Positions 3,340-7,862 of a DNA stretch of 64,000 bases are shown piece by piece (positions within the stretch are counted from its first letter, which is position 1; each line of letters opens with the position of its first letter). The translations under genes and the position numbers were made by a program. The notes under the pieces are model-generated. The model was given only the letters and a program-made list of their open reading frames with translations. It searched no databases and was not told the origin of the DNA. Source of the DNA: an uncultured Clostridium sp. (lineage in GTDB: Bacteria > Bacillota > Clostridia > TANB77 > CAG-508); the NCBI GenBank assembly GCA_947646915.1, contig CANSII010000005.1:1171-65170 (forward strand). The letters run 5' to 3'.

Positions 3340-3566
3340 TTAAATTCCTCCTTCTTATCAATAATATGTATTTTACCATAGTATTAATTAATTTTCTATA
3401 GTATTTTTTATTTAATTTAAAAGGTTAATATCAACCCATTACAGTTCCTAATGAAAAAAATATTATAAAAGATTGAAATATATTTGGTAGTGAACTGTAA
3501 AATCAAACTATTAACTATTAAGATAAATTTTTCATATAATATATAGATGTCGAATGAAAGGAGGTA

Positions 3567-4155
3567 TTGTTGAAATTGGAAGTAAAAGATAAAAAAATTG
3601 GTTTTGTTTTTACAGGTTCTTTTTGCACATTTAGTAAAACAATTCCAAAAATGAAAGAATTAATAAAAAAAGGTGCTGAAGTTATTCCAATAATGTCTTT
3701 TAATAGTTACAATATGGATACTAAATTTGGAAAAGCTGAAGATTTTATAAATGAAATTCAAGAGTTAACAGGTAATGAAATTATTCATACAATACAAGGT
3801 GCTGAACCAATTGGTCCAAAAAGATTGACTGATATTATGGTAGTTAGTCCTTGTTCAGGTAATACTATGTCTAAATTAGCTTATGATATTATTGATACTC
3901 CTGCTACTATGGCTGTTAAATCTCATTTACGTAATAATCTGCCTGTTGTTATTGCTCCTTCTACAAATAATGGTCTTAGTCGGAAATGCTGTTAGTATTG
4001 CTTATTTACTTAATAGAAAAAATTATTATTTTGTTCCTTTTAGACAAGATAATCCAATTACTAAACCTCGTTCAATTGTTTTTGATACAGAATATCTTAT
4101 AAAAACAATTGAATTTGCTCTTGATGGTGAACAAATTCAACCAATATTGCTTTAG
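3567..4155 (+). CDS. dpaB: dipicolinate synthase subunit B (flavoprotein), interrupted by a 1-nt insertion at 3981
   Basis: GFVFTGSFCTF...VSPCSGNTMSKLA...VIAPSTNNGLS then, after skipping C3981, GNAVSIAYLLNRKNYYFVPFRQDNPITKP. This is collinear with B. subtilis SpoVFB. The ORF-track pieces 3567..3995 and 3883..4155 join. Confidence 0.8.
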
Positions 4156-4207
4156 TGAATTTGTATACAAATGTTATTTTATGTAAGTATATTTATATAG
4201 TATAAGT

Positions 4208-4272: not shown

Positions 4273-5857
4273 CTATCTGCAAAAATTTAAAAAGTCTAAT
4301 TGTTTACTATTGTTAAAAATGATACTCACTTCTGATGAACTAATACCTAACACTTTACCTATATCAGCATTATTCATACCTTGCTTTTTTAAATCCTGTA
4401 TTTGAGGAAGTAAAGCTAATTTTTTCATCCATCCAATATACTCAGCTAACATCTCATAATGTTTAGTATATCTTAATATATCAGCAAGTTCAATTGCAAT
4501 ACTTGTAGCAGCTTTAAGACCTTCCTTTTTACTTGCATTCAAAATAAGAGCTTTTATACAATCTCTATTAGCAAATTCAGGATAATTATATAAAGTATTT
4601 AAAATAATTTCTATATCCTTATCAGATATATTAATATCTAAGTTATGTAAGGCAGTTACTATCTCAATAAATTTTTTTCTTCCTTCTGTAGATATATTTT
4701 TCTTGCCTTCTAACTCTAATTCATCTTCTTCTCTTGCAATTTTACTATATTTTTTATATTTCTCAATATAACTTTTTATCTTTTCTGCTCTCTCTTTCAT
4801 TAACTTTTTAGCTTCTTCTTGTGATATTATTCCTTTTTGTATTAATTTTCTTTTTTGATACAATACCCTATGCATAGTTAGACTTTTTGTTCTATCACTT
4901 TGAACAATTTCTGTTGGAGTATAGCCTTGTTTTACTTTTTCTAAAACATATTGCTCTTGTTCAGCTAAAGGCATTTCTATATCTTTAGATAGTGTTTTTT
5001 TAAAACTATTTTTTGCATTTTCTGTTACTTTCTCTCGAGTTATAGCACCTACATTAATAAGTTCGTTTATCATTTGAGTAGTTTCTCCATAATCAAGTTC
5101 TGGTCTTAACTCTCGTATTTGTTTGTGAGTTATTCCTTTATTTATACAATCCTTAACAAATTTCAAATCTTCTTGCTTTTTTGTTTCTCTTGCTATATTT
5201 ATTTCTTCTACTGTTATTAATTTTTCATTTTTAATATCTTCCATATAAATATTAAAATCATACGATGTTATATTTAGTTGTTTATTGATCTTATAATTTT
5301 TCAAACCTTTTCTCAAAAGATGAACAATTTGATCTCTTTTTTTAATATATTCTAAATCTGTTTTATCTATTGATGAATTATCAATTTCTATAATACTTAC
5401 TTTTTGTATTTCATCTCTTTGGAGTTTTCCGTTCTTCTATCAGTTCATTTATATGCCAGTCTACAGTATATTTATTCATTTTCAATAAATTAGAAATTTG
5501 TAATTTAGTATATTTTTGTTTTACTAATTTAAAAATTGTTTCCCTATTTTCTAAAAATTGTTTATGTTTTATTTCAGCTTTCCCCGTTTTTGTTGATTTT
5601 CTAACTTTTGTTTTATTTAAACCTTGAGCCGATGGATGTTCCTTATAATATTGTGCAGAAGCTGATTTAATCTCACCTTCTGTTAAAATACCTTCCTTAA
5701 TTAAAGTATTTCGCATATTAGTAACATATGTTTTTGTATAGCCAAATCGTTCAATCATCCTGCGCATTGGAAGCCCCTCTTTAAACGATTTTAATATTAC
5801 TTTCTTATCTTTTTCATATTTTTTTGTTTCAACCATGTTCTTATTTGGTTTACTCAT
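4273..5857 (-). CDS. tandem helix-turn-helix repeat protein (about 525 aa when joined), interrupted by a 1-nt insertion at plus coordinate 5431
   Basis: ORFs 5411..5857 and 4273..5316 join through an open frame when the C of gaa-C-gga is skipped. The product has 5-6 modules of about 40 aa of the form KxGxxxxxI...LIxxGxIxxEEI. Confidence 0.6.
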
Positions 5858-5952
5858 AAAAATTTCTCCATTCTATATTTAAAATACTTTTTTAACATTC
5901 TATTACATTTACTTTGTGCTTAAAAGTTTCTAATCTCCATGAAATAGTGAAA

Positions 5953-6097
5953 GTGATCTCACAGATATCATCATGTGAGACCACCTTTACCAAAAGAGGG
6001 GGATACAACAAGTATAACTTAGGAGGCAATATGTTTAAAGGATCCTCCCCCTCCTATTGGTATAACCAAAATATGTAAAGTTTCCAAAAGGAAACGT
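5953..6097 (-). promoter_or_regulatory. GC-rich structured leader or candidate ncRNA upstream of the HTH-repeat gene
   Basis: Three hairpins: GTTTCC-AAAA-GGAAAC (6080..6095); a long stem CCAAAAGAGGGGGAT (5990..6004) pairing with ATCCTCCCCCTCCTATTGG (6042..6060); and TCTCACA/TGTGAGA (5955..5982). The G5/C5 runs stand out in AT-rich DNA. Confidence 0.4.
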
Positions 6098-6103
6098 ATA
6101 ATT

Positions 6104-6133
6104 ATTATACATTATAATACATAATTATGTCAA
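6104..6133 (-). promoter_or_regulatory. sigma-A-type promoter TTGACA-N18-TATAAT driving the structured leader and HTH gene
   Basis: Minus-strand TTGACA at 6133..6128 and TATAAT at 6109..6104, read directly. Confidence 0.5.
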
Positions 6134-6143
6134 GCTTTTTTGA

Positions 6144-7862
6144 CTATTTTTTCAAAATTAATTTGATTTCTTCATTTCTTTTAACTTTTTTAGTAGTAGT
6201 TTTAATCAATTCTTTATCAGTCAAAATCATATTAGTAATATGTTTGTATCTTGGAACAGTCTCATTAACCTCTTTTTTAATTCTATTCCAAATTATATCT
6301 TTTATTTCATCTTCAGATATATCTCCAAATTTTTCATAAACTTCATCTTTATTATAAACAACCTTTACAGATAATTTTAAATCATTTTTATCATTTTCAT
6401 CAGGAAGACCAAAAACCATAGATTCTTCTATCAATTCAATTCTATTAACTAGTGTCTCTAATTCTTCTGGGAAAATCTTTTTGCCATTTTTTAAAACAAT
6501 CATATTCTTCTCTCTGCCTGTTATAAAAATAAAACCATCTTTATCAATATATGCTAAATCTCCTGTATGAAACCAACCATCTTTTAAAACTTTTTGAGTT
6601 TCTTCTTCATTCTCGTAATATCCAAGCATTACATTTGGTCCTTTTGCAATAAGTTCACCGATTCCATTACTATCCTGATTTATTATTTTTACTTCTACAT
6701 TTTCCATTGGAACACCTATTGATCCTACACGAGCTTTATAATCATTTTCAGCAACTAAAACTGGAGATGTTTCTGTAAGACCATATCCTTGAACCATTCT
6801 AATTCCTAAATTAATAAATCCTTGTTCAACTTTTGGATCTAGTGGTGCTCCACCTGAAATTACAAATCTCATTTTTCCACCAAGTTGATCTATTACTTGT
6901 TTGAATAGTTTTCTTCTTATGTCGATATGAAATTTTAACAAAAAGTTACTTATTTTTATAGCATTTTTTATTAGTTTTGTTTTTCCTTGTTTTTCAATTT
7001 CTTTTTGAATTCTATTATAAATTGCTTCGACTAATAAAGGCACTCCTACAAACACTGATATTTCATATTCTTTTAAATTTTGAGATACATATCTCAATCC
7101 ATCGGGGAATGATGTTCTTACTCCAAATGCAAGCATTACAATTAATGCAGTTGATCCAAATATATGATGAAATGGTAAAAATGCTAAATTTGAATCTGTA
7201 TCATAAATACCTTCTGCTTTTTGCATTGCATATACATTTGATGCAATATTATTTTGAGATAACATTACAGCCTTTGATTTTGATGTTGTTCCAGATGTGA
7301 ATAGTAATATTCCCATTTCATATGAATTTATCTTTGTTGAAATGTATTCTTTATTTCCATTTTCTAATAATGTTTTTCCTTCTTCTTTCAAATTGTGTAT
7401 ATCCTTATATCCTTCTAATTTTGACATACATATAAATTCCTTTAAATTGCTATTATTTCTTAATTTTAGTTGTTCTATTTTTTCAATATACTTTTCATCA
7501 AAAATTATACAATCAGCTTTGCTTCTTATTAATGAACTTTCTAATTCATCTATTTGTAAATCTTTATCTAATGGAATTGATATTATTCCTCCTAAAAGAT
7601 TTGTTAAATGTGCTAATGCCCATTCATATCTATTTCGTCCAATAATAGCTATTCTTTTGTTTTTTAATCCTAAGTCATATAATTTAGTACCTAACGCATT
7701 TATGTGCTCCAATAGCCTTTTATATGTGATATTTTCGTATCTTTGATTTTTTTCTTCTTTATGTTTTATTATAAATGCTATATTATCTGCATATTTCTCA
7801 GCTGAATTATAAATTATTTCTTTTATGTTTTTAAACAACTCGACATCTTTGTTTTTTTTCAT
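6144..7862 (-). CDS. AMP-forming long-chain acyl-CoA synthetase (FadD-like)
   Basis: 572 aa with AMP-binding motifs TSGTTSKSKAVMLS, GYGLTET and TGDLAYIDKDGFIFITGREK. Confidence 0.85.
   Translation of the reverse strand: MKKNKDVELFKNIKEIIYNSAEKYADNIAFIIKHKEEKNQRYENITYKRLLEHINALGTKLYDLGLKNKRIAIIGRNRYEWALAHLTNLLGGIISIPLDKDLQIDELESSLIRSKADCIIFDEKYIEKIEQLKLRNNSNLKEFICMSKLEGYKDIHNLKEEGKTLLENGNKEYISTKINSYEMGILLFTSGTTSKSKAVMLSQNNIASNVYAMQKAEGIYDTDSNLAFLPFHHIFGSTALIVMLAFGVRTSFPDGLRYVSQNLKEYEISVFVGVPLLVEAIYNRIQKEIEKQGKTKLIKNAIKISNFLLKFHIDIRRKLFKQVIDQLGGKMRFVISGGAPLDPKVEQGFINLGIRMVQGYGLTETSPVLVAENDYKARVGSIGVPMENVEVKIINQDSNGIGELIAKGPNVMLGYYENEEETQKVLKDGWFHTGDLAYIDKDGFIFITGREKNMIVLKNGKKIFPEELETLVNRIELIEESMVFGLPDENDKNDLKLSVKVVYNKDEVYEKFGDISEDEIKDIIWNRIKKEVNETVPRYKHITNMILTDKELIKTTTKKVKRNEEIKLILKK

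Follow-up and report, generated by a model that had tools for sequence, protein, structure and literature searches.

The window analysed here, a 64,000-nt stretch of contig CANSII010000005.1 from an uncultured Clostridium sp., carries a structured element on its minus strand, directly behind an acyl-CoA ligase gene. We put the chances at about even that this element is a real and so far uncatalogued small RNA (sRNA) gene of ~150 nt, restricted to one clade and of a familiar kind. A promoter is followed by three hairpins, H1, H2 and H3, the last being a predicted intrinsic terminator; a short non-coding transcript would thus be bounded by its own predicted promoter and terminator, both of which are conserved among the three sequence variants that we compare. 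That a minus-strand RNA is genuinely made and ends at H3 is likely. An initial annotation of this region had proposed a leader in front of a helix-turn-helix (HTH) gene and offered a riboswitch, an attenuator or an sRNA as its nature. A structured, promoter-driven minus-strand RNA is borne out by our analysis, which favours the sRNA option; a riboswitch or attenuator leader of the HTH gene is not. The variants are referred to below as W (the window), G (G023-type) and L (L099/L107-type), and all the genomes compared are metagenome assemblies of uncultured organisms.

The upstream gene and the promoter define where the element begins. The ligase open reading frame (ORF; 7862-6144, minus strand) matches the Pfam AMP-binding family (E = 5.6e-63) and ends with a TAG stop codon at 6146-6144. 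Ten nucleotides past this stop lies the -35 hexamer TTGACA (6128..6133, minus strand), which is identical in the G and L variants, followed after an 18-nt spacer by the -10 hexamer TATAAT (6104..6109). What had been described as a near-consensus promoter at 6133..6104 in fact agrees with the consensus at 12 of 12 positions and is the only such site within 5300-6400. The L107 promoter also scores 12/12, and G023 has the same hexamers with the same 18-nt spacer. Transcription is predicted, from spacing only, to start near A6097 on the minus strand. There is no terminator between the ligase gene and the RNA, so ligase transcripts should bear the same structure as their 3' end.

The RNA of the W variant (158 nt) has a fold energy of -53.9 kcal/mol, compared with -33.2 ± 3.7 kcal/mol in dinucleotide shuffles (z = -5.65). 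H1 (6080..6095, minus strand, as are all the elements of the RNA) is the 5' hairpin GUUUCC-UUUU-GGAAAC. The GUUUCC/GGAAAC hairpin noted first is therefore real, but its loop on the RNA strand is UUUU, AAAA being the plus-strand reading. H1 is separated from H2 by a 17-nt linker (6063..6079), assigned from the alignment and predicted to be single-stranded with an unpaired probability of 0.89-0.96. Within it an ACAUA motif (6076-6072) is kept in all three variants and is predicted to be unpaired in each of them. H2 (5988..6062) is a long helix in which a purine-rich 5' arm, UACCAA-U-AGGAGGGGG (6062-6047), pairs with a pyrimidine-rich 3' arm, CCCCCUCUU-UUGGUA (6002-5988), enclosing 44 nt. The interior contains an anti-Shine-Dalgarno-like CCUCCU (6021..6026), the sole interior motif common to all variants, for which UAGGAGG is an alternative partner in the window variant. 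H2 hence corresponds to the stem that had been noted to enclose about 45 nt and a competing GGAGG/CCUCC pairing. Over its 64 kb the window has a G+C content of 25.4% and only ten runs of G5 or C5. Two of these, 49 nt apart, lie in this element and pair with each other; such runs are indeed conspicuous in an AT-rich genome, as had been remarked. H3 (5950..5987) directly adjoins H2 and its sequence is kept in all variants. Its 14-bp helix (AAGGUGGUCUCACA / UGUGAGAUCACUUU, 5987-5974 with 5963-5950) is an extension of the UCUCACA/UGUGAGA core recognized earlier. Pseudoknots, whether loop-to-tail or linker-to-loop pairings, were not found by eye.

H3 has the features of an intrinsic terminator in the L variant, where a 13-14-bp stem is followed by a full U-tract, UUUCUUUUUU. 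In L107, H3 has AAAA on one side and UUUCUUUUUU on the other and lies 4 nt from the stop codon of a convergent dpaB-like flavoprotein gene, an arrangement that points to a bidirectional terminator. W and G retain the stem, with the U-tract interrupted (UUUCACUAUUUC and UUUCAUUUAUAUU, respectively). In the window, the tail past H3 (5937..5949, minus strand) is an eroded U-tract, CACUAUUUCAUGG, and likeness to the L variant stops at 5949. The U-rich stretch reported after this hairpin is thus present, but it is only moderate (CACUAUUUC), weaker than was implied, and is not called by the terminator scan. The scan left H3 uncalled in both the window and L107; the limit of 3-8 nt that it sets on loops is likely part of the reason, and in the window the weak U-tract is likely another part. 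Since insertions replaced the distal U-tract in W and G, termination at H3 is probably leakier in these two variants.

Homologues of the RNA were found only in contigs where the neighbouring acyl-CoA ligase is 94-96% identical to that of the window. BLAST of the region against 60 relatives gave one real match, G023, the remainder being AT-rich noise. The G023 ligase is 95% identical and its promoter and H3 are nearly the same, whereas its H1 and H2 have different sequences that nevertheless still pair. Among ligase orthologues from 80 genomes of the genus, the downstream sequence is unrelated once identity falls to ~83% or below, and in the protein database there is a gap between a group of ligases at 94-96% and another at 82-83%. 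A covariance-model scan of the contigs encoding six proteins of the 94-96% group located the RNA in 10 of 10 loci and revealed the third variant, L (L099 and L107). Three covariance models applied to 150 genomes of the genus (twice), to the 10 nearest relatives with lax filters and to 150 genomes of the order returned weak hairpins only; such matches in G156, G096, G036 and G212 were judged to be ordinary terminators or chance. A scan for the H3 pattern recovered only G023 and chance matches in GTDB genomes, three chance matches in metagenome contigs and nothing in viral contigs, and BLAST of phage and plasmid collections gave no match for either the RNA or the HTH protein. As far as these collections show, the RNA is confined to one shallow clade comprising three close lineages of uncultured gut Clostridia. 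By both BLAST and covariance model it has a single copy in its own genome, so it does not belong to a repeat family, whether of interspersed repeats in general or of miniature inverted-repeat transposable elements (MITEs). A MITE-like repeat at 15470-15614 of the window has no relation to it.

Comparison of the variants supports the predicted structure. W, G and L have in common the promoter, the three-helix fold and the CCUCCU of the H2 interior; all fold as H1-linker-H2-H3, with z scores of -5.65, -7.45 and -9.30, respectively. In an alignment of six distinct sequences guided by the model, standard pairs occupy 91.9% of cells, a share that drops to 44-50% on sliding the partners by 1-3 columns. 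Two-sided changes affect ten pairs, three of the six in H1 and seven of the 15 in H2, a number reached in none of 500 shuffles. In five further pairs G·U is exchanged with A-U, or U·G with U-A; two pairs of H2 go from G·U to A-U. Since the alignment was made to fit the structure and includes just three deep lineages, these statistics reflect few independent events, and the covariation support for an RNA structure is good but not overwhelming. The search for covariation in relatives that the initial annotation had proposed has therefore yielded ten two-sided changes, with promoter and fold retained.

The same alignment indicates the strand. The helices contain 20 G·U or U·G cells and no A·C or C·A cells, which argues for an RNA on the minus strand, and both the direction of the promoter and the folding of the reverse complements, worse by 10-15 kcal/mol, agree with this. 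The strand on which the RNA would be encoded is thus clear. These observations also bear on the possibility that there is no RNA function at all, the locus being a strong promoter and DNA palindromes left at a recombination hot spot, with the hairpin arms kept complementary by templated repair of quasi-palindromes. Each lineage does show a rearranged locus, the differences including two distinct insertions and an inversion of the dpaB segment, and the element, present in one shallow clade, was not found in 150 genomes of the genus or 150 of the order. Against this possibility, however, stand a promoter that remains 12/12 in all three variants despite strong divergence 3' of it, and the retention of CCUCCU and ACAUA within otherwise scrambled sequence. 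Moreover, G·U pairs are tolerated and exchanged with A-U whereas A·C never appears, which is an RNA-level signature, and the element is single-copy. We regard an explanation at the DNA level as quite improbable.

The rate at which the RNA diverges is out of keeping with its surroundings. Ligase DNA is ~93% identical among W, G and L, and this identity collapses exactly past the -10 box. Across the RNA it is 26-66% per 50-nt block, H3 being the conserved exception, and past H3 the sequences are unrelated. The parts that are kept are the promoter, UCC...GGA atop H1, the ACAUA of the linker, an AGGAG-like 5' arm and a CUCUU-containing 3' arm in H2, the CCUCCU and nearly all of H3. In H1 and H2, W and L are recognisably homologous and G is more distant. 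The unpaired probability of CCUCCU is 0.42 in W, where it is half-paired with AGGA, 0.77 in G and 0.97 in L. H1 and H2 appear to have diverged unusually fast, far faster than the flanking DNA, while staying paired.

Such divergence leaves next to no credence for a metabolite riboswitch of an undescribed class. Like a riboswitch, the RNA is structured, stands next to a promoter and ends in a terminator-like hairpin, but it has no conserved core of junctions or loops: the H2 interior varies between 36 and 45 nt and keeps only CCUCCU while the flanks are ~93% identical. An interior this variable is not aptamer-like. Nor is there a consistent downstream gene, an antiterminator or an Rfam match. 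The region had not been matched to any riboswitch class, with an Rfam/Infernal scan suggested as a check, and that scan found no family in any variant. Rfam 15 gave no match at the gathering score in the whole 64-kb window; at permissive E-values the best score on W was 18 bits against a threshold of 62, judged to be noise, and at permissive thresholds G-type loci gave nothing and the L type at most 22 bits.

What follows H3 differs between the variants. In W it is a minus-strand tandem-HTH gene, read as two ORFs, 5857-5411 (148 amino acids) and 5316-4273 (347 amino acids). Its ATG at 5857 is 92 nt past H3, close to the ~95 nt first estimated. The two ORFs (4273-5857, minus strand) become continuous if one base is skipped near 5431, at CGG. 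According to blastn blocks, the gene (5857-4273) is carried by a 1.8-kb insertion relative to L107 (4155..5948, minus strand), which is context and not part of the RNA and whose junction falls directly past the H3 stem. In G the gene past H3 encodes an unrelated 522-residue protein resembling extracytoplasmic function (ECF) sigma factors, containing sigma-70 regions 2 and 4 as well as a membrane segment; its G036 relative, the one full-length copy that was tested, lacks a homologue in the genome of the window. In L there is no such gene, and H3 meets the stop of the convergent dpaB. The HTH protein is very rare, with homologues in three clusters of a database of 5.8 billion proteins and in genome G165. 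The regions upstream of these homologues are short and unrelated and do not match the RNA model. The downstream gene differs or is absent, and HTH homologues occur without the RNA, whose constant neighbour is the 3' end of the ligase gene and not the HTH gene. A dedicated leader of the HTH gene is rejected on these grounds, and the RNA is very probably independent of that gene.

A broader version of this idea, in which the RNA is a 5' leader or attenuator, would make H3 a conditional terminator, with entry to the tandem-HTH gene in W or the sigma-like gene in G gated by the action of the ribosome, a protein or an RNA on H2. The switch would lie in alternative pairings among AGGAG, CUCUU and CCUCCU, and in each variant the 5' arm of H2 is able to pair with either the 3' arm or CCUCCU. 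W and G, moreover, have a codirectional regulator gene, 92 nt and ~130 nt past H3, respectively; the U-tract is weakened exactly where these cargo genes are present; and the scan listed no promoter-like site between H3 and the HTH ATG. The reading cannot apply to L, however, where H3 runs up against the convergent dpaB and nothing is left to regulate. The cargo genes of W and G bear no relation to each other, both lie on insertions, and HTH-protein homologues elsewhere do without the RNA. On inspection, none of the three sequences contains a segment able to pair with either arm of H3, and hence none offers an antiterminator. Finally, H2 and H3 are adjacent and stable in all predicted folds, with H3 fully formed in both the minimum-energy and the centroid structures. 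Attenuation is consequently an unlikely function for this RNA. The resemblance to attenuators and riboswitch platforms of Firmicutes, in which promoter, structured leader and terminator hairpin precede a gene, extends to two of the three variants; the element differs from them in having no mutually exclusive antiterminator, no conserved sensor core and a downstream gene that is unconserved and, in one variant, absent.

The strand opposite the RNA also offers a candidate, a small ORF that would be the functional gene, with the minus-strand RNA as its antisense, either in a type I toxin-antitoxin pair of the Sib/Ibs kind or in connection with a variable signalling peptide. Plus-strand ORFs (window 5914-6078 and the equivalents in L107 and G023) have 15 codons in W, 25 in G and 28 in L, and open with an ATG or TTG located 4-6 nt past AGGAGG, the complement of CCUCCU. 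A Shine-Dalgarno sequence and start codon at working distance are thus found in three of three variants, and the frame is kept into the reverse complement of the promoter region, where it ends in ...YYT(L) and a stop codon. Fast divergence with pairing kept resembles cognate antisense pairs, and in L107 the reverse complement of H1 is called terminator-like on the plus strand. Yet the peptides (MFKGSSPSYWYNQNM; MTKHKTLLLQFFYVNAPSGACEYYT; MFKSLLPFGFNIYVYTCSNIGTCTYYTL) are mutually dissimilar, with no membrane-spanning stretch and no Pfam match, and the W version is cut to 15 codons by a stop. No plus-strand promoter-like site stands upstream, where the sequence differs in the three contexts and, in L, follows a terminator. 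The 20 G·U cells would be A·C mismatches on the plus strand, and we estimate that a start codon would fall by chance 4-9 nt from a fixed AGGAGG in about a quarter of AT-rich sequences. A functional plus-strand ORF is hence highly unlikely. The initial annotation had also named a decayed coding remnant as a possibility that would undo its proposal; the plus-strand ORFs are not alike in sequence between the variants, and a stop codon truncates one of them, which does not fit such a remnant.

In Sib/Ibs-type I toxin-antitoxin systems, a strongly promoted RNA of ~150 nt lies opposite a very short ORF with a good Shine-Dalgarno sequence. Here too the RNA is fully opposite a very short ORF and its sequence diverges fast with pairing kept. 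Unlike those of Sib/Ibs, the peptides are neither hydrophobic nor conserved, one is truncated and no plus-strand promoter is detectable; moreover, the G·U pattern speaks for a role of the minus-strand RNA only. Membership of the type I class was rejected, there being no hydrophobic membrane-active peptide and no plus-strand promoter.

The sRNA reading, which we prefer, would have transcription start near 6097, from a consensus promoter of the housekeeping type 10 nt past the ligase stop. The RNA would fold into H1, the ACAUA linker and H2, whose large interior would expose CCUCCU, and would end at H3. It could then act in trans, the exposed anti-Shine-Dalgarno loop and adjacent bases pairing with the ribosome-binding region of target mRNAs; action through this loop is a tentative proposal. 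In W and G, regulator genes would have been inserted later, directly past H3, shortening the U-tract, and read-through from the strong promoter may feed them.

For this genome the candidate target is a DUF4363 gene behind a yetF-like gene. Contig C23 (L002, from the same genome as the window) carries at 838-1917 a YetF/DUF421 gene followed 12 nt later by the DUF4363 gene. Thirty-six nucleotides of the H2 interior (~6046-6011) are antisense to the junction between the DUF421 stop and the DUF4363 start, matching at 31 of 36 positions. The match includes 15 contiguous bases across the Shine-Dalgarno sequence, the spacer and the AUG, and the predicted duplex is nearly continuous. This junction is the only second BLAST match of the region in its own genome at E <= 0.001 (E = 4.8e-4), and its local alignment score is 45, compared with 18 ± 2.4 for shuffles. 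The same DUF421/DUF4363 junction sequence occurs in G023 (C167:2617-2650). A duplex check of the RNA against the translation start of the ligase and the starts of the cargo genes gave nothing remarkable.

Several observations weigh against an independent, trans-acting sRNA with this target. There are only three independent variants, so covariation rests on few events, and templated repair of quasi-palindromes could also keep hairpin arms complementary. The U-tract past H3 in W is weak and escapes the terminator scan, and the 92 nt ahead of the HTH ATG contain no convincing promoter for the HTH gene; in the window, the RNA may in practice be the 5' leader of this gene. In a seeded genome-wide duplex scan the C23 site came first among non-self matches, but narrowly (-48.6 kcal/mol, the runner-up having -47.8 kcal/mol). 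No match to the DUF4363 site is seen in the G or L variant, and an antisense search with the G variant in its own genome gave best E values of 0.036 and 0.13, inside coding regions and not significant. The DUF4363 junction is therefore a lead for the W allele only.

The proposed mode of action has precedents in Firmicutes. The sRNAs RoxS and RsaE block ribosome-binding sites, and their hallmark is an anti-Shine-Dalgarno motif exposed in a stable scaffold (PMC4409812, PMC6158497). Like RsaE/RoxS (Rfam RF01820; Durand et al. 2015, PMC4409812; PMC6158497), the RNA described here would be a stand-alone transcript of ~100-150 nt, bounded by a promoter of its own and by an intrinsic terminator, the latter predicted in our case, and has few hairpins and an exposed C-rich motif resembling an anti-Shine-Dalgarno sequence. 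It is not a member of that family: the sole RsaE match is in L107, on the opposite strand and at 16 bits against a gathering score of 79, and the window has none. It also has a single CCUCCU inside the interior of a long helix in place of several UCCC/CCCC loops, and is found in one shallow clade, whereas RsaE/RoxS is conserved across Bacillales.

The position of the element has parallels among enterobacterial sRNAs. DapZ and MicL represent a type located at the 3' ends of genes, with a promoter of their own and the terminator of the host gene. The promoter described here similarly stands at the very end of the upstream gene, with no intervening terminator and with one terminator common to mRNA and sRNA. 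It differs in being just past the stop codon and not within the coding region; in addition, the host is a Firmicute and there is no known Hfq dependence.

The outgroups G097 and G016, whose ligases are ~81% identical to that of the window, suggest how the locus arose. In both, a short spacer separates the ligase stop from a single hairpin adjoining the dpaB stop, the end of dpaB being recognised from the ORF of the window; promoter, H1 and H2 are absent from this ligase-dpaB interval. The wider interval between ligase and pepF has undergone rearrangement in each lineage. Three steps make up the simplest history. An ancestral order of ligase, shared terminator and dpaB would have gained promoter, H1 and H2 upstream of the shared terminator in the ancestor of W, G and L; regulator cassettes would then have been inserted past H3 in W and G, and the dpaB segment inverted between lineages. 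Compared with G023-type contigs, the window and L099/L107 have the segment in question, which is ~640 bp long and carries the dpaB-like flavoprotein gene, in reversed orientation and at 96-97% identity (window ~3527-4171; L107 5927-6554; L100 7698-8340).

Different elements occupy the corresponding position in more distant relatives. In G035 (L034), where the ligase is 82% identical, the first 260 nt past the ligase stop contain a TTGACA...TATAAT promoter and then three tandem units of ~45 nt, each with a GAGYGUUUCRCARCUC hairpin; this may be another uncatalogued RNA. In G036 (L041), the first 120 nt past the ligase stop hold two inverted copies of a G+C-rich palindrome (TGTGCCAAAGGGGGCGTCCCTTTTTGGCACA), upstream of an ECF-sigma-like gene related to the cargo gene of G023.

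Lineage-specific small RNAs are common and mostly uncharacterised, and one more would by itself carry modest weight. The annotation of this locus is nevertheless changed, in that the strong promoter is not simply that of the HTH gene. Of wider consequence, though doubtful, would be the birth of an sRNA followed by rapid retargeting, in which the three alleles are distinct regulators with different targets, kept apart by diversifying selection. If this is true, the loop of one lineage is a near-perfect antisense copy of the DUF4363 translation start, in an RNA whose H1-H2 portion has diverged several-fold more than its flanks. Whatever the merit of that reading, three alleles differ sharply at one site, with H1 and H2 only 30-65% identical between them, while promoter, fold, predicted terminator and anti-Shine-Dalgarno loop are all kept. 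The origin can moreover be reconstructed, with the outgroups showing the empty state, one lineage the bare RNA and two lineages regulator genes inserted behind it. The locus thus provides a compact test case for the origin of new bacterial sRNAs and for their changes of target.

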